DNA of 62,915 nt, counting the filler, from Basidiobolus ranarum (lineage: Eukaryota): the NCBI GenBank assembly GCA_040143965.1. It is 27 parts of 27 records of this genome, joined end to end, with 100 filler letters (N's around TTAATTAATTAA, not from the genome) between each part and the next. Parts side by side here need not be neighbours in the genome. Positions count along the whole stretch, not along the records: positions 30,421 to 32,653 come from JASJQH010010479.1; 26 more parts are not named here. One strand, 5' to 3'. The translations under genes and the position numbers were made by a program. Of this stretch, positions 25,748 through 60,692 are shown one piece after another. The notes under the pieces were generated by a model. It worked only from the letters and a program-made list of their open reading frames with translations, made no database searches and was not told the origin of the DNA. Positions within the stretch are counted from its first letter, which is position 1. The number at the start of each line of letters is the position of its first letter.

Positions 25748-27139
25748 GTTCAACATTTTGGAAACTGTGCAGAATCTTGCCTGAAATCACCTGGATTTGA
25801 GTCAATCGTGGAAAAACCAAAAACCAGGCATTACTCTAAAGGTTCAAGACTTATTTTATGTTGCTTATCTAGGGTTTTTGCAAGAAAATGGCAATTGAGC
25901 TAGTATAGGCCTATTCATGAAACATCTCAAAAATGTATGCAACTATCAACTTGGAAAAGAAAGAAAAGCAGCTAAAGAAGTACCCAAGGAGCAGGAAGTT
26001 AGTAAACCCAAGGGAAAAGCAAAGGTGCGGGTGAGTTTAGGCTCTATTGTCCCTCTTACCAAAATCTTCACACCATTGCCAAGATCTGCATTTCCAGAGT
26101 GAGCTCTACTGGCAAAAAAGCTTAATTTCACCATGAAATCATGTACACCTGTTGGAAGAGTGCTAAATTTGGAAGTTTATCCAAAACCTAGCACCTCTCA
26201 ACAAACCAAAACACCAGCAAATTAAACTCACAGCTCTCCAACCTCAACTAGTACCTTTCAAAGTGTTAAATTAGCACCAAAGTCAAATGCAAGCTACAAG
26301 CCACACAAACACCACAACACACCCTCAGTAGTGTTGCACCTCAAGGACATATGAAAATAGCAAAAGTGCTTGAGGAGTATTTTCAAAACTATGAAGGGAA
26401 AAACGCAGTGCAAGTATGCAGAAAGTGGCTTCAGAAGAAGAACATTTAACTTGATGTTCAGTCTGGTGTTGACCATTCAGATATCTGGGAAGAACTTAAT
26501 ACAGAGTGGCACAATATTGCAGGATATCTGCCAGATAGCTGTAAGAATGTTGATTCAGCAATGTTAATACAATGGTAGGCTTTGATGGAGATATTGGACT
26601 TGTTCCACTGTGCCAGGAATTATCGGACCTTGGATCCATATATTAAAGTAAATGCAATTCAAATTGATCATTCCAGAGGGTGCTCAACAGTGCCAAATTG
26701 TGCTGCATAAATTTTAGAATATATTATCCAATATGATACATACAGCACAATCTGGCATTATCACAGAGAACAAGTCCTTTGATACAAACTTTTATTGGAT
26801 ATGAGCTAAACCTTGGGTGCGAAGAACTATATAAAATATTAGGGAGAATTTATCAAAGAAACTAGGAATTTTAAAGGTGACAAATTAGCATTCAAGTGGT
26901 AAATGTGCAAAATTTGAGTTACATTTTTTGCACATATGTTGATCCATAGTTCTCTGAGATTGTAGCTAATCATGTGCAACTATTTTGCAAGATCTTGAAA
27001 TTTCACCCCTCAAACTAAAAAAATTGATTAAAACCAAATCTAACTTGATGATTTTATGATGGTGAGTAAACAGTCAATCCCAAATGGATTAAATTGTGAC
27101 AGTTTTCCTACATTTACAATCCTTGAATTTCTGTTAGGG
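25748..27139 (+). mobile_element. CMC-EnSpm accessory ORF region and end A, degenerate
   Basis: Repeated in contigs 9, 10, 13, 20, 24; ends CTGTTAGGG. Confidence 0.75.
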
Positions 27140-30320: not shown

Positions 30321-30526
30321 NNNNNNNNNNNNNNNNNNNNNNNNNNNNNNNNNNNNNNNNNNNNTTAATTAATTAANNNNNNNNNNNNNNNNNNNNNNNN
30401 NNNNNNNNNNNNNNNNNNNNACAAAACTATAAATGTCAACTTTCTACTCAATAAATCAATAAGTGAAAACCACCAATTCCTCTAATTCTCCAAACCACTT
30501 CCAACAGGCTCCCAAATACTTTAACA

Positions 30527-31402
30527 CTATCATGCTGGAAATTGATATATGATGATTCTCTTGTTTCTGAGTTAGCTTTACAGCTGCATGAAACAAAACA
30601 GCCTAAAATTGTTGTTATAGAATTCAAGCTAGACCTTTGGAAGGTACATCTTGACTGTAAGACACCATTCTTGATTCCCATTATTCCAGGTTTTTGTCCT
30701 ATTGCCCATCTGTTTTGTGCTGAGTACCTTCCTTTCTGCTTACGACCTTTGCCCTTAACACTATATTTACATCCTCAGAACTGGGTCACATTGGTCATCA
30801 AGTTAAGTATAGATATGATCCAGTATTGTCACAATATCTTAAAAGATTGTTGTCTTGATTGTCACTTTGTTTAGATTTGTATTTAAGCTAAATAAAGTCT
30901 ACACCATCTGGTGCTTTTCATCCCCCCTAAATTTCTAGAAACCTATTAGAAATTATACTTGACAAGGGTGTTGCTGATATTTTCATAGAAGAAGTCAAGG
31001 AACATATTGAATGGGATCTCTTTGATCATACTTTCAGACAGCATATTGACAGCCCTCTTTTTGCACCTTTCTCTTTGGAAATGGAACTCTTAGCAAGATT
31101 TACCAGTTTACTAAAAAACTCTCCCTCTCCTCAAGTCACAAATTTTCCAAGAAATTACTACAGTGAGCAAGCAGTTGAACTTCATTCTCCACTAGACTTT
31201 GACATTCAACATCTATGGGAAATTGCAAACTCTAGGGTTTTCAACTAACCCTAACCCTTCCATACTTCATTGTTTTCTTTATATTTTAACTTAAACTTTT
31301 ATTGTTAGCACATTATGCTACATTGGCTTATTTGTTTAATAGTTGTTTATCCATTTATTAAATAAATATTACACCCTGTGGTGTTTATCATCCCCCTAAC
31401 CC
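30527..31402 (+). mobile_element. Two head-to-tail element 3' ends finishing in telomere-like CCCTAA(CCC)
   Basis: Open frames end at 30874 and 31248; each is followed by AATAAA, CACC-N4-GGTG and CATCCCCCTAA; unit 1 recurs at 37596-37784 and 39120-39380. Confidence 0.65.
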
Positions 31403-31971
31403 AGGCTATGAATCATTATACATTTTATGCATAAATAGAAACAGATCAGAGACTGGAATGTTTACTTCTTTAATAGCTCACCATGTTTGGGATTTCCTGT
31501 TGTATTCCTCTTATCATACAAATATAATTATTGTTTTGAGCAAATTGATATCAGAAATAAGATATGGCAAAAGCTCAAGCAGGAATTCCACAACCTGAAC
31601 AAGAAATCATATGACAAGATGATAGAGCTCTGATCGATTTGTTACAAAGTTGGATTATTGAACAATACAAAAGGGCAATTTTGGAGACAATATATTACCT
31701 CGATCAATTCAATATCTTGCACACGTAGAGCCCATGAATAAACCTCAACCTTCACCCAGTTTGGAGTTAAAGTGAGTTAAGGGTATTTTACCGCATGCTG
31801 AAAAGCACAAATATAGGAAAATGTCACGCTTTTGTAGTTCTTGTATGCTAGTCCTAATCAGTGGCATATCAAAAAAAAATAGTACATACTATGTGAATTC
31901 GTATTCCTTCTGCCTCAGGCATATCAGTGATGTAATTTAATGTAAAAGTTGAAACTTGTTTAGATTGTATC

Positions 31972-32653
31972 GTGCTTTCAAGGTGGTTCGCAAAATCAAA
32001 GTCTCTTGCTTTAAAAGAAGAGTTTCAGTATGTGGAGAAGTTGGGAAGAGAAGAGTTGAAGGCTAGTGTTGGCAAATGTGTGCTAATAAATCCTGGACGA
32101 CGCGATTTGCTGTACTGTATGCACGAAGTACTGCTGAAAACAAAATGGTTTACCGATATAACTACAATCAGACAAACGGCTTGCCAAGAATCTTTGAGAG
32201 AAGTTTGGGAATGATACTATATTAATACTTGGTGACTAGTCGTCTGGAAATGAAAAGTATCATGAACCCAATAGAGGCGTGGTAAGGAGAAAAATGTTAG
32301 CCAAAGAAGGCTTCCAACTATACCTCCTTGACGAGTTTAAAACTTCAAGCCTGTGTCCTACTTGCCAGAATGGTGAACTCGAAAAGCTTCAAAAAGTCAA
32401 AAATCTTAGACCATACAAAAGAGAAAAGTATCCAATTGTATATCGTCACGGCCTTTTAAGGTAAACGCTTTTTACATGCAAGTAAAAAATTCCAACCTAA
32501 TTTCTGTTCAGGTGCAAAAACCAACAGTGTTTAAAGGTCGCGGCCAATACTACTGAAGATTCTCCCCTTTGTCTTTGGAATCGTGACCTGGCTGCTACTT
32601 TGAACTTTAGACATATCCTTTTTAACTTGCGCTCAACTGGGGAAAGACCAGAA
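31972..32653 (+). pseudogene. Fanzor1 (eukaryotic TnpB-like) C-terminal part, degenerate, intron 32461-32511
   Basis: RuvC-I-like VLINPGRRDLLY, RuvC-II LLDEFKTSSLCPTC, HGLLR/CKNQQC zinc finger across a GT-AG intron, RuvC-III WNRDLAATLNF..GERPE. Confidence 0.88.
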
Positions 32654-35085: not shown

Positions 35086-35458
35086 AAAATCAAATCTAAC
35101 TTGACGTTTTTATGACGGTAAGTAAACGGTCAACCCCAAATGGATTAAAATTGTGACGGTTTTCCTACGATAACAATCCTCAAATTTCTGTTAGGGGATA
35201 GTGTGTTTTTGTTAGTATATTCTTAAGAGTATATGGTGACTTATATAGTAGAAAAGTAAATCAATTGTTTGAGATATTCAGGAGTTTGTATAATAAGATA
35301 TAACAGATAAGTGGGGGTAATAAGACATACTTGTTATATAGATATAGAGATAATCCTATTTAGAATATAGGGGCTATAGATACGTTGCTTTCTGTTTCTG
35401 ATATATGTATCATAACTAAAGTTAACTATGATGTTGAATAAAGATTAATTATCCAACA
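35086..35458. mobile_element. CMC-EnSpm end A (to 35196) abutting a partial Copia family B LTR
   Basis: CTGTTAGGG terminus followed by LTR-B sequence ending ATTATCCAACA. Confidence 0.8.
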
Positions 35459-35949
35459 AATTTCAACATATCCCTCATATTCTTTTCCCCAAATTTAGGG
35501 TCAGGTTTTCCTAAGTGAATCAAGAGTGCAGGGTAGGAGGTATGAAACCTCCTCAAGCTGTTAATTTACATATTTGCTATAAAAGTCAGCATGTTCTCTT
35601 AAGAATAAAGTAACTGAAAAACTATTACAAGTTGCCTCTAATACACAAAGTCTACCCCCATTATGGCAATATCCTCCAACAATATTAAATAAATATCCCA
35701 AGTCAGAGCATAAAATTCAAAGAGAAAGGTGATTTTCCTAGTAAGCTGGGTCTAAGAGTATTCCAGATAGGATGGAGGCAAGAATAGAAAATTCCAGAAT
35801 GGTTGGGGCCCAAGTAGGGTTTTCCAGAATGGTTAGAGCCAGTGGTATAGTATTCACAGTGAGCTAGCCCTAAGGGTTGCTGCTCATCTTAGAGATATAT
35901 AAATCATACACTTTAACGGAATATAGCACAATCAACATTGCTTCTTAAT

Positions 35950-36342
35950 ATGAAATCTTTTGTCAACACCTGTTCTATTGTTGCTACCTTTTGGCTTCTA
36001 TACCAAGTGAATCCTCTTGGTATCAACTGCCATGGAAGTAGTTAGTGTTCAACAACAGGAAACAGCTTGAATCAATTAGTCAATATCATATGGAATCTTC
36101 CAGGTGGTAACGAATATGGCCCTGGAGCTATAATTGCAACTAACTGCCATGTACTTGGAGGGATTACTGCCTTTATACAGAACACGGGCAACCCTATTAC
36201 TGCTTCTAGTGCTTATTTGTTGCTTCATCAGTTGCAAAATCATGATTGTAACATATGTGATAGTGCACCTTTGGGTTTTCCAGGTGATAAAGACATTAGC
36301 CACGGTCAAATTACTGTGAATTTGGTTTCTCAATGCCAATAA
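35950..36342 (+). pseudogene. KP4 killer-toxin-like secreted protein with premature stop
   Basis: Signal peptide + LGINCHGSS*C...HDCNICDSAP...DISHGQITVNLV matches KP4 (LGINCRGS..C; HGC..CGS.P; G.LTVNYV); TAG at 36043-36045. Confidence 0.88.
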
Positions 36343-37417: not shown

Positions 37418-37441
37418 CCCTAACCCTAACCCTAACCCTAA
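37418..37441 (+). repeat. Telomeric repeat (CCCTAA)4 at contig start
   Basis: Four perfect units begin at the contig edge, C-rich strand 5'. Confidence 0.75.
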
Positions 37442-37506
37442 GACTGTGTCCCCCAGCCCCCCTCTTTTGATACTTACCCTCACGTACCCTTACAAGAAAA
37501 TCAAAA

Positions 37507-37784
37507 CCCTAAGTGTTTATCATCCCCCCTAACCCTTTTGTTTAAATTGATAAATAAATATCACACCCTCTGGTGTTTAGCATCTCCCTAACCCCACCTT
37601 TGCCCGTTAACACTATATTTACATTCTCAGAACTTGAATACATTAGTCATCAGGTTAAGTATGGATATGATCCAGTATTGTCACAATATCTTAAAAGATT
37701 AATGTCTTGAATGTGACTTTGTCCAGATTAGGATTTTAGCTAAATAAAGTCCACACCATATGGTGCTTTTCATCCCACCAACCC
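37507..37784 (+). mobile_element. Array of three 5'-truncated telomere-associated element ends
   Basis: Units end at 37535, ~37594 and 37784 in CATCCCCCTAACCC-like motifs shared with 30930, 31402, 39380. Confidence 0.7.
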
Positions 37785-39119: not shown

Positions 39120-39749
39120 ATTGAATCCTGATTATTTTGGGTTTTTGTCCTATTGCCCATTTGGTTTGTACTGAGTATCTTCCTTTCTGCTTACCACCTG
39201 TGCCCCTTAACACTATATTTACAGCCACAGAACTGCATTACATTGGACATCAAGTTAAGCATGGATATGATCCAGTTTTGTCTCAATATCTTACAGGACT
39301 GATATCTTGATTGTCACTTTGTTTAAATCAGTATATAAGCTAAATAAAGTCCACACCACCTGGTGCTTTCCATCCCCCCAGTGTTAGGGGATATACCAAG
39401 ATTTGCTTTGAATATCAGGGTAGATGGATACTGGCAAACTTTTGATTATCGATCAATACAACATCTAGTAAGCAAAGATAAGGTTTGAACTAACTCTAAC
39501 CCTTAGTGAGTAAAAAGGAAGAATATTGCATGTGACAAAGATATTGTATTGATTAGCTATAAGAGTGGCTCACAATAATTCTACATATCTAGCCCATTTA
39601 GCTAACTTGTTTAGCTAGCTCATCTCATAGCTTTTGCATGTAACTAACANNNNNNNNNNNNNNNNNNNNNNNNNNNNNNNNNNNNNNNNNNNNTTAATTA
39701 ATTAANNNNNNNNNNNNNNNNNNNNNNNNNNNNNNNNNNNNNNNNNNNN

Positions 39750-58369: not shown

Positions 58370-60568
58370 CATTAGTGGGGCAGCATACTCCCATCTGGAT
58401 CTAATAAATGTTCTAAAGAGATGAAGCCTGATTAAAGGAGGCCAACAAGAACCTTTGAGCTGTAGCAGCTTTAAAGTACGGGATGCTTTAGCTGTGCAGC
58501 TTTCAATATAGCTTGGCCAATCAATCCCATGCTTGGTAATGGGAAGTCCCAAGTAGTGATACATTGTTGGCGTTGGGATGTTGATACCATATAAGCAGAG
58601 TTTCCATTCCTGAGAGGGTCCAACAAAGCCTGACTTTGCGATATTGATTTCCATAATATTATCTGAGCACCATCTTGTAATGCATTCCAGTAGTTGGTTT
58701 GCATGTCCCAGGCTCTCTGGAAGAAGCATGATATCATCGGCAAATAACAATGCTGAGGGGACTGGGCTATCAGTGTTATGAGAAGCTAGTTCTTGAGCCA
58801 GATCTTCAATATAAGCATTGAATAGGAATGGTGATAGAAGTGAACCCTGAAATAGGCCACGAAATCTTGGAAATGGCAGAGATGTAGCCCCATTGACACT
58901 GATGGTTGAGTAACAGGAAGAAAATAATGTGAAGATTAATCTCACTAGCTGAGATGATGCTCCAAGATTTCTAAGCTTCTTTAAGAGTATTGATATTACC
59001 ACTCGATCGTATGCCTGCTTAAGATCTATAAATACTCTATTTGGCCTCTGATGAAGCCTTGACAAGTGGCAAGCATCATATGAAATTATTGAGTGGGAAA
59101 TAGTTGAGTAGCCCTTTCTGAAGCCTGCCTGAGAGTAATGAAAGCTTGAAAGCTCAAGTGAGTTCATATACTGGAGTAAGCAAGCCTCAAATATTCGTCT
59201 AAACATTGGTGTTAGAGCCACAGGCCTAAAGTCATTGATAGTTGCTGCCGAAGATTTCTTTGGTATAGGATGAATATGTGAGATATTCCATTGTGAAGGG
59301 GTACATCCCAATCGTAAGCAAGAGTGAAATAATTTCAACAAATCTTCTAGAAACTTTGGGCATCTAGCAAGAACTTTCACAACTTTTATATGTAACGGAT
59401 CAGGCCCAGCAGACTTGGAAGAGGGATAGCCTAAGATTGCAGCAAGGAGAGACTTTGATCTGAACCATTTTGAAGTAGAGAGAAAGTCTTGAAATTCTAT
59501 GTGTGCATTCTGTTCACAGGTGTTTGTGGAGGTTGGGACAAATGGTCTTGCAAAAACCTCCTGGAAAAAGAGAACCGCATCATCCAGGGCAGATATGCTA
59601 TAATCTCGAGAGTTTATAAGATTCTGTGAGTGTTGGAACTTCTGTGCATTCTTGAATATCATAATGGCTTTCTGTGCAGTAGACATTTTGTTGAGGGGAT
59701 CAAGTAGATATTTCTCAGCCTTTCTTGGTTTAGCTTTCACTCTTAGGACTGAATATGTTCCAAGATAGTATTCACTAATTGCTACAAGTATGGAATAAAA
59801 TATTGTATAAGCTGCATCTACTTCGGCTGATATTGTCTCAATTGGACTGCTTGCATTGATGGAATCTAGATGGCTCCAGACTGCTTGCAATGTGGAAGAC
59901 TCAAACATGTAGTGAGAGCACATCATGTTCTGAATCACTGGCTTATTCAATGGTTGAAGATACAGCTTTGTTGCACCAGAGTTTACTGTAGAGGTCAATA
60001 TTTTATCACCAAGATAAATCTCAGCCAGCATGCAGGCGTGATCGGAGAGATTATTTAGTGTATTATATTCAAATGACCATTTACCTTCCATATTGTTGCT
60101 TAAAAATATGTGATCTGGTGTGTTATGTGGGGGTGCTGGGACAAGATGATTCAATCCCAGTTGCAAAGCAAAATGGTCAAATAAATCAATTCGATTTCTT
60201 GGGCCAATCCTTGTTGAGCCATAGGTGCTCCCAAAGTGAGTGTTGATATCTCCAATCAATGCACTGATTGGAATAGAAGGCAAGTATTGAGCTAGTCTTG
60301 AACAAGTCATAGTAGGAGGAAAGTAAACTGCCATGATACTGATAGAAAGCAAAGTAATTGTTAGTGTGTAATCTGTGATGATAACTGTGGATATATGATT
60401 TCGTAAATGAGGGGATATCAGGCAAAGCAGACCAGCTCTGTGATGTCCCCTCTCTGGCTTTGGGCCAACCTTTTTTGAAGAGGCAAGAAACAATGGATGT
60501 GAAATATGTAAGGCATGATCCACAAACCATGTTTCAGCTAAAAAGACCAAGTCAAAAGACTCTGTCAT
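58370..60568 (-). CDS. Non-LTR retrotransposon (LINE) ORF2: APE endonuclease + reverse transcriptase, 3'-truncated by contig end
   Basis: LVFLAETW, GDIN, PDH, SDH (APE); KSAGPD, FRPVALT, QAGFRKG, FIDLKQAYD, GLFQGSLLSPFLFN, FADD, YLG (RT); no stops over ~730 codons. Confidence 0.95.
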
Positions 60569-60692
60569 TATGTCTAGAACTTTATACCACTTNNNNNNNN
60601 NNNNNNNNNNNNNNNNNNNNNNNNNNNNNNNNNNNNTTAATTAATTAANNNNNNNNNNNNNNNNNNNNNNNNNNNNNNNNNNNNNNNNNNNN

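Follow-up and report, generated by a model that had tools for sequence, protein, structure and literature searches.

The window analysed here is a 62,915-nucleotide stretch of Basidiobolus ranarum DNA (GenBank assembly GCA_040143965.1), drawn from a genome of 65 Mb in 13,754 contigs, and positions are counted along this whole stretch. The 2233-base contig at window 30421-32653 carries one two-member stack, with a family A element in front of a family C element (Table 1). Both units were assigned by homology, unit 1 as the 3' end of the ORF2 of an APE-type LINE (family A) and unit 2 as a 5'-truncated copy of a 1.2-kb RT-less element that codes only for a LINE-ORF1-like protein (family C). The open frames and termini described in the sequence-only reading were recovered: a frame of 135 aa (30467-30874) and a terminus with CACCATCTGGTG (30902-30913) and CATCCCCCCTAA, ending at 30930, in unit 1; and a frame of 105 aa (30931-31248, ISRNLL...SRVFN*) and a terminus with ACACCCTGTGGTGT (31371-31384) and CATCCCCCTAACCC, ending at 31402, in unit 2. 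The first of these frames exists as an open frame to 30874 but does not end there as a protein. It is a chimera: up to 30526 it reads through the end of a reversed LTR, and a 1-nt deletion near 30752-30756 then throws it off the ORF2 frame; the real ORF2 stop is the TGA at 30856-30858. Similarly, CTAACCCTAACCC does lie over the unit-2 stop but is private to the present copy (1 of 13 copies) and not a general feature. The LTR has TG..CA ends and in another locus (L130) adjoins copia-like pol sequence, and the same LTR end adjoins or breaks up many clan copies. CpG observed/expected was 0/12.7 in unit 2 and 8/17 and 17/25 in the flank. Downstream on the same contig (32267-32650, + strand) lies an apparently intron-split TnpB/Fanzor-like C-terminal zinc finger with the final nuclease motif, which gave a weak Cas12f1-like_TNB match (E 0.009). 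Elsewhere in the window, five tRNA genes are clustered on the first contig (111-181, 846-918, 1149-1231, 1854-1927, and 2168-2240), and a small cysteine-rich frame of secreted type (about 35990-36340, + strand) presumably resembles KP4-like antifungal proteins.

Table 1. Clan elements and adjoining features in the window.
Feature	Position	Strand	Basis or remark
LTR end, later insertion, sets the 5' edge of unit 1	30421..30526	-	putatively copia-like
Family A ORF2 C-terminal part, decayed, stop TGA 30856-30858	30525..30858	+	89% to L026 positions 910-1312
Unit-1 hairpin P1, AATAAA inside	30864..30898	+	fold z -3.24
Unit-1 hairpin P2, CACC/GGTG	30902..30913	+	predicted fold
Unit-1 C-run and TAA tail, junction with unit 2	30922..30930	+	
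Family C, last 105 codons of 269-aa LINE-ORF1-like protein, 5'-truncated	30931..31248	+	90.5% to full copy L003
Telomere-repeat replacement at unit-2 stop codon, in register, 8-nt	31245..31258	+	1/13 copies
Unit-2 hairpin P1	31330..31367	+	fold z -3.83
Unit-2 hairpin P2, ACACC/GGTGT	31371..31384	+	predicted fold
Unit-2 C-run and TAACCC tail, 3' junction to CpG-containing DNA	31392..31402	+	CpG counts
Family E internal fragment, without terminus	35686..35882	-	
(CCCTAA)4 at start of another contig, immediately 5' of second chain	37418..37441	+	
Second chain: family F end, 20-nt terminus stub, family E end, family A end, one strand	37442..37781	+	
Additional family A 3' end	39131..39378	+	86% to L026

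Longer copies of family A contain the RT motifs FDITKAFD, QGSVLGPLLF, and FADD upstream of the region represented by unit 1. A sister family, B, was traced from its terminus (L063) into contig C10302, where the end of an ORF1 is followed by an APE-RT frame; there are at least two RT families, and not the one RT that had been suggested. The family B protein matches RVT_1 in Pfam (E 1e-26), its best solved relative is human L1 ORF2p (E 1.6e-11), and its N-terminal APE-like domain matches Exo_endo_phos_2 at E 3.7e-5, which is below the curated cut-off. The residues N, YxPP, GDxN, D, and SDH can be aligned in the clan endonuclease, as shown in family B. For family A an APE domain is indicated by way of L105 and the protein P0027: L105 is probably the 5' part of family A, linked to it through P0027, the 5' and 3' parts of A having been assembled apart. 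The end of an ORF1 lies immediately upstream of the endonuclease in both L104 and L105. The glutamate of the ETW motif, which binds metal in the L1 endonuclease, is replaced by D in all four clan sequences that span the site (IDVQ, IDVK, IDVK, and LDVK); seven of eight other fungal LINEs aligned there have ETW, and one decayed copy has KTW. Because GDxN, D, and SDH are retained, the clan endonuclease may still cut. The ORF2 C-termini contained no zinc knuckle, CCHC, or PD-(D/E)xK restriction-like endonuclease (RLE) by eye and had no Pfam match of these kinds. The clan LINEs start at varying 5' positions, as expected of 5' truncation, and have no LTRs of their own. Among the best 120 of 1261 matches, the family B protein had six close relatives at 44-90% identity, one of them from B. 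meristosporus, followed by other fungal LINEs at about 30%. In a tree built without named clade references, the clan RTs grouped apart from Mucorales-type LINE RTs with support of 89/95. For A ORF2, omega was 0.07 for shared and 1.73 for private variants. APE-type LINEs of other families, whose motifs are ETW-type and whose 3' ends differ, are present at window 58370-60592 (- strand), L107, and L108; L107 and L108 retain CpGs (249 and 186, respectively), whereas the clan is almost without CpG.

The bodies of the two units had been taken as unrelated. In fact, unit 2 is homologous to the ORF1 of the LINE lineage whose ORF2 is unit 1. The full copy of family C (L003) opens at its 5' end with tandem repeats of 105 nt, continues with a 269-aa ORF (P0002) and a 150-nt UTR, and closes with the terminus. 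It has no RT, and a protein identical to its product is found in the database under the label Basidiobolus ranarum. P0002 matched a second protein, P0007, at E 1.1e-15 (one of the 16 matches being a spurious coiled-coil repeat), and P0007 in turn shares 32/39 residues with the ORF that precedes the family B APE-RT; the family C protein also matched the ORF1 of an ordinary LINE in the same genome (E 5e-6). In the predicted structure of the family C protein, a disordered linker separates a coiled coil from an RRM-like domain, which is followed by a helical end. The RRM-like call is based on a best Z of 8.8 (rmsd 3.0, 74 aligned) with many RRM rows at Z 6-7.4; L1 ORF1p was absent among the structural matches listed for this model, Foldseek searches with it returned nothing at E<=0.001, and a Pfam scan of ORF1 gave weak coiled-coil matches only. 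Matches in an Atlas search were Mucoromycota clusters without names. The ORF1s of related elements (P0009-P0012) have an N-terminal CxxC...CxxC zinc ribbon, which is missing from family C. Family D is a paralogue of C with 47% identity, and its stop leads into the shared terminus; its 5' end was not found. The ORF1s of C and D branch outside the clade formed by the partner ORF1s of the clan, which argues that they are old lineages and not recent deletions. Omega for shared and private variants was 0.46 and 0.66 in C (p 0.31) and 0.42 and 0.87 in D (p 0.027), so that shared variants of both appear to be under weak purifying selection, not significant in C. Family E, about 550 nt without a long frame, is a non-coding member. 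Family C thus has the make-up of an ORF1-only LINE, with a single ORF homologous to LINE ORF1, no RT, and the 3' end of a partner LINE, and the sharing of this terminus by RT-less members would imply mobilisation in trans. A split LINE, in which C would be the ORF1 of A, was also considered and is unsupported: ORF1s directly precede the endonuclease in L104 and L105, of which L105 is tied to A only indirectly, and C and D lie outside the clade of those ORF1s.

The five families (two with RT, two ORF1-only, and one non-coding) have a common two-hairpin 3' end followed by a C-run and TAA(CCCTAA)0-2. The terminus pattern had 243 exact matches genome-wide against 0 for the reversed pattern, and a count of the body families upstream of the motif, as proposed in the sequence-only reading, gave several: the 189 sites in the loci collected for this count comprise A (116), E (20), C (18), D (15), B (11), and 9 without family. 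The terminal hairpin and telomere-complementary tail that had been singled out are indeed shared, but the description was incomplete, because in each family a long A/U-rich hairpin with AATAAA (P1) precedes the CACC/GGTG hairpin (P2). P1 is formed in 149 of 168 ends (95/107 in family A and 16/18 in family C) and P2 in 141 of 168; the fold z of the terminus, -3.24 and -3.83 in the window units, was -1.25 in family D. Tails carry 0 (64 sites), 1 (97), 2 (19), or 3 (6) TAA/CCCTAA units, counted over 186 sites after removal of three false matches without family. When the suggested covariation analysis of the CACC/GGTG stem was run, its core proved never to vary and is uninformative, whereas about two independent compensatory changes occur outside it (A-U/C-G in P1 and A-U/U-A at the base of P2). 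The covariation score was reached by 0/500 shuffles, with relatedness uncontrolled and family A rows misaligned in P1, and RNAalifold recovered P2 alone. The RT presumably recognises these hairpins. No hammerhead was detected in Rfam scans of the window (gathering cut-off) and of eight loci (E<=1), the predicted fold being two hairpins. The LINE-type RT (RVT_1) with its APE-like domain and the missing hammerhead rule out a Penelope-like identity, and the elements are LINE-type rather than terminon-like as first proposed. A further repeat, F, is without P1/P2, ends in CCCTAA, and yet joins stacks in the same orientation, which suggests that stacking tracks with the tail and not with the hairpins. 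Repeat F (window 37442-37512; L097, L057, L012, L033, and L077) has several GC hairpins, ends in CCAGAACATCTATACCCTAA, and is the end of a longer CpG-poor repeat; at L097 112-152 (- strand) a fragment of 5S rRNA lies between an F tail and a family A fragment.

A same-strand member begins within 25 nt after 50 of 185 tails (2 of the 50 being 18-nt matches), compared with 0 on the opposite strand, and the downstream members are 5'-truncated. The stacks show 18 upstream-downstream class combinations, one of them with an upstream site without family. That the bodies are separate repeat families, as had been supposed, was confirmed by matches that cover either positions 105-510 or positions 508-980 of the query (40 of 1779 candidates scored). 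One fixed A+C unit is ruled out by these separate copies and the 18 combinations, and ordinary host genes are ruled out as the bodies are repeat families found apart and in many orders. Junction ambiguity with the telomere repeat was 1.43 nt over 44 junctions against a null of 0.74 (sd 0.15). Target-site duplications gave no clear signal in 42 junctions (mean shared word 5.7 vs 5.3); a natural 5' junction to unique DNA is present in few copies. Among 35 pairs, decay was significantly lower in the upstream member in 12 and higher in 1, and downstream members had 47 stops and frameshifts in 3287 codons compared with 9 in 1619 for upstream members. The contig end cuts the upstream member in 27 of 49 cases and the downstream member in 5. 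However, the age difference is gone when the upstream member lies away from a contig end (9:8), so that the difference in decay order is partly one of ascertainment. An initial age test (31/42, p 6e-5) was discarded as inflated by this contig-end bias. Decay within single stacks is nevertheless unequal (0/288 vs 16/173 in one and 5/288 vs 39/252 in another).

TTAGGG is the telomere repeat of the B. ranarum genome. Its arrays terminate contigs (18 units on C7746 and 12 units on C13172), and a telomerase RBD match was found on C493, where an intron-split telomerase reverse transcriptase-like gene is located (L311). The 12-unit array directly caps a 5'-truncated copy of family A, as (CCCTAA)4 caps the second chain in the window; overall, two of six contig-terminal repeat arrays adjoin clan members and four adjoin other DNA. 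At L178 (contig C3947), the tail of a family B element has four to five telomere units; after it come a LINE-like fragment and then an intronless TPR frame that we take to resemble the C-terminal half of PEX5, possibly a capped gene truncation.

The orientation of family A was determined with an internal 24-mer, 335 nt from the family end, which avoids selecting tails; 100 of 105 matches were listed and the first per contig was used. Among the matches listed, the 5' side faces the nearer contig end in 55/58 contigs of at least 3 kb, in 41/42 of at least 5 kb, and in 23/23 of at least 10 kb; in the 42 contigs of at least 5 kb, the 24-mer lies >2 kb from both ends in 2. A control LINE family for this polarity gave 8 matches only. 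The genomic context is one-sided as well: the flank is unique on the 3' side in 147/213 chains and on the 5' side in 20/113 (a set enriched for tails), CpG observed/expected rises from 0.03-0.08 5' of the elements to 0.31-0.58 3' of them, and gene-like DNA forms the 3' flank of 46/93 termini, compared with 3/29 DNA-transposon ends and 1/18 LTR ends. At the opposite ends of large contigs (n=20) no outward member and one inward-pointing C copy (C243) were found; a second inward-pointing case is C8564. At unselected large-contig ends (n=64) there were 4 outward and 0 inward members, one motif match being a proline-rich false positive, which over all 84 large-contig ends is an outward:inward ratio of 4:1 that is not significant (p 0.375). 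Other repeats also end large contigs (about 13/64). The geometry of contigs in this fragmented assembly, which is without assembled chromosome ends, suggests that the clan is located at chromosome ends with the 5' end outward. An abundant DNA-transposon-like repeat with CCCTAACA...TGTTAGGG ends occurs at window 27128-27139, 35185-35196, and 37162 onward and at L204-L233, and one of its ends has 129 exact matches, mostly in CpG-poor DNA. Of 30 unselected LINE 5' ends, only 2 abutted a DNA transposon at its TTAGGG end, which was read as later transposon insertion.

The reading that we favour, at a probability of roughly 0.55, is RNA-templated end attachment, i.e., repeated addition of clan elements at telomerase-seeded chromosome ends. 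The mechanism that we infer is the following. In a Basidiobolus-specific clan of APE-type LINEs, the autonomous families A and B (ORF1, then EN-RT) would mobilise C, D, and E. All clan RNAs would end in one module of P1, P2, C-run, and UAA/CCCUAA. The RT would bind the P1/P2 hairpins, and the CCCUAA stub would pair with the TTAGGG 3' end of an eroded telomere or a telomerase-seeded break. The cDNA would then extend this TTAGGG end, mostly as a 5'-truncated copy, be recapped with repeats, and later receive the next element. The outcome would be polar head-to-tail stacks in which the tails point to the genes and the younger copies lie further out; the outer zone would afterwards be filled by LTR elements and DNA transposons, and some stacks may become internal relics. 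The single orientation within stacks (50:0), the polar contig geometry, the one-sided flanks, the telomere-capped copies, the telomerase RBD match, the lower decay of upstream members, the junction ambiguity, the lack of a clear target-site duplication signal, and the change in the endonuclease were counted in favour of end attachment. Counted against it were the dependence of the location on contig geometry, the adjoining of clan members by only two of six arrays, the inward copies, the non-significant 4:1 ratio at large-contig ends, the lost age difference, the possibly active endonuclease, and the small size of the control LINE family. The several hundred termini would also call either for chromosomes in very high number or for many relics that have become internal.

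The same elements could instead be a dispersed LINE system of the stringent type, inserting inside chromosomes by ordinary endonuclease priming, with CCCTAA as a microsatellite tail and with stacks and polarity arising from insertion near kin in methylated repeat islands and from assembly breaks. The mostly retained endonuclease fold motifs, the occurrence of inward-pointing copies, the other repeats at about 13/64 large-contig ends, and the failure of the age order in the contig-end control all agree with such a system. It would, however, predict old copies within large contigs, where 2/42 were observed, and about equal numbers of contig ends at 5' and 3' junctions, where 1 vs 41 were observed, and it leaves unexplained the 50:0 orientation, the restriction of gene-like DNA to the 3' side, and the telomere arrays on truncated 5' ends. 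We consider dispersal unlikely on these grounds. Somewhat less likely still is a telomere-repeat-specific endonuclease acting in the manner of SART/TRAS or MoTeR, in which the altered APE would cut TTAGGG tracts in telomeres or older tails and new copies would go in there. MoTeR arrays are described as same-oriented and head-to-tail with spacers of partial to several repeats (PMC7367193), the clan endonuclease is divergent in a conserved manner, and the junction ambiguity fits repeat pairing. Insertion into a short older tail should make the downstream member the younger one, whereas the significant pairs are opposite (12 vs 1). Selection of pairs could not give a later insert a much greater age than that of its host, and this speaks against both insertion into short tails and jumping in a single event. 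Clan tails were also found on 0/49 CCCTAAC ends of the abundant DNA transposon, which may itself be younger. Insertion into the true telomere, distal to an older copy, fits the data as well as end attachment does.

Very improbable, in our estimate, are stacks produced by template jumping of the RT between RNAs in one event, or centromere-flanking clusters like those of Grem-LINE1 in Mucor. Chains on the same strand and short junction ambiguity would suit template jumping, but the strong differences in decay within stacks indicate members that were not copied together. Grem-LINE1s are reported as pericentric and as occurring at scaffold ends that are not telomeric, where they point away from the end (bioRxiv 10.1101/706580); as described there they have a poly(A) signal, zinc fingers, and zf-RVT, whereas the clan has telomere-repeat ends and no C-terminal zinc knuckle.

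Returning to end attachment, the fuller picture is somewhat short of an even chance: an APE-type LINE lineage of an early-diverging fungus with very many small chromosomes would have turned end-attaching, with an altered endonuclease, a double-hairpin and telomere-complement RNA end, and a fleet of ORF1-only and non-coding partners, and would border many chromosome ends on the inner side, with telomerase still present. In the sources consulted, the fungal telomeric non-LTR elements MoTeR, FoTeR, and Cnl1 are those with a restriction-like endonuclease, and the ORF1-only LINE partners described are animal. If end attachment is true, the clan would represent convergence on this route by fungal APE-type LINEs that have ORF1-only partners and a telomere-pairing 3' module, with telomerase retained, and a natural case in which to ask whether endonuclease-independent LINE insertion at telomeres can become the normal route of a lineage. 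The tails would then serve as marks of chromosome ends, present or former, in this genus. If the copies are dispersed, what remains is a modest new set of LINE, half-LINE, and SINE-like families.

A literature search returned no paper on Basidiobolus LINEs or telomeres, nor on this clan, which may be described in subscription literature, Repbase, or supplements outside the scope of that search. In stringent LINE/SINE pairs, such as that of eel UnaL2, a common 3' stem-loop and repeat tail are used in trans, and the clan is like these pairs in sharing a 3' stem-loop plus a repeat tail. Family C is like HAL1 (L1) and Ag-Sponge (CR1), in which ORF1p is the sole product and the LINE 3' end is kept (PMC5786205); these are reported from animals, and that account, as far as it was available, makes no mention of telomere-repeat tails or polar stacks. 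HeT-A/TART/TAHRE of Drosophila (Jockey clade) likewise include an ORF1-only element reliant on an RT-bearing relative and form head-to-tail arrays, the RNA 3' end being attached at chromosome termini there (PMC6581046), as it may be in the clan. The clan differs in its fungal host with a telomerase gene match, in a tail of telomere repeat and not poly(A), and in an ORF1 of coiled coil and RRM type; furthermore, HeT-A gag nests with TAHRE gag, whereas the C and D ORF1s lie outside the ORF1 clade of their partners. SART1/TRAS1 (R1 clade) are APE LINEs whose 3' UTR motifs are required and anneal to the target (PMC4700185), but SART/TRAS are described as cutting telomere repeats with an intact APE and lying full length at telomeres, whereas clan copies are mostly truncated and their APE has the E-to-D change.

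Among fungi, MoTeR1 is the case named in a review of telomeric elements (PMC10088271). MoTeR1/MoTeR2 (Magnaporthe), FoTeR (Fusarium), and Cnl1 (Cryptococcus) are telomeric non-LTR elements whose layout resembles the clan stacks, with the 5' end outward, head-to-tail order, short TTAGGG spacers, truncated copies newly capped by telomere repeat, a defective partner with the same 3' end, and internal relics (PMC7367193, PMC12857005). According to these accounts they have a C-terminal restriction-like endonuclease, unlike the clan, in which two ORFs and an APE-like domain at the N-terminus go together with protein-coding ORF1-only partners, and neither an RLE nor a zinc knuckle is present. Terminons/Athena, which are EN-deficient Penelope-like elements, carry, behind an RNA fold at the 3' end, telomeric repeats in reverse complement for pairing with the G overhang (PMC6431247), and are like the clan in this 3' fold and telomeric stub, in 5' truncation, and in head-to-tail arrays. 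They are described with a Penelope-type RT and a hammerhead ribozyme, in contrast to the LINE-type RT, APE-like domain, and two plain hairpins of the clan. If end attachment is true, the clan would combine the priming strategy of terminons, a gag-only partner as in HeT-A, and a LINE enzyme in one system.
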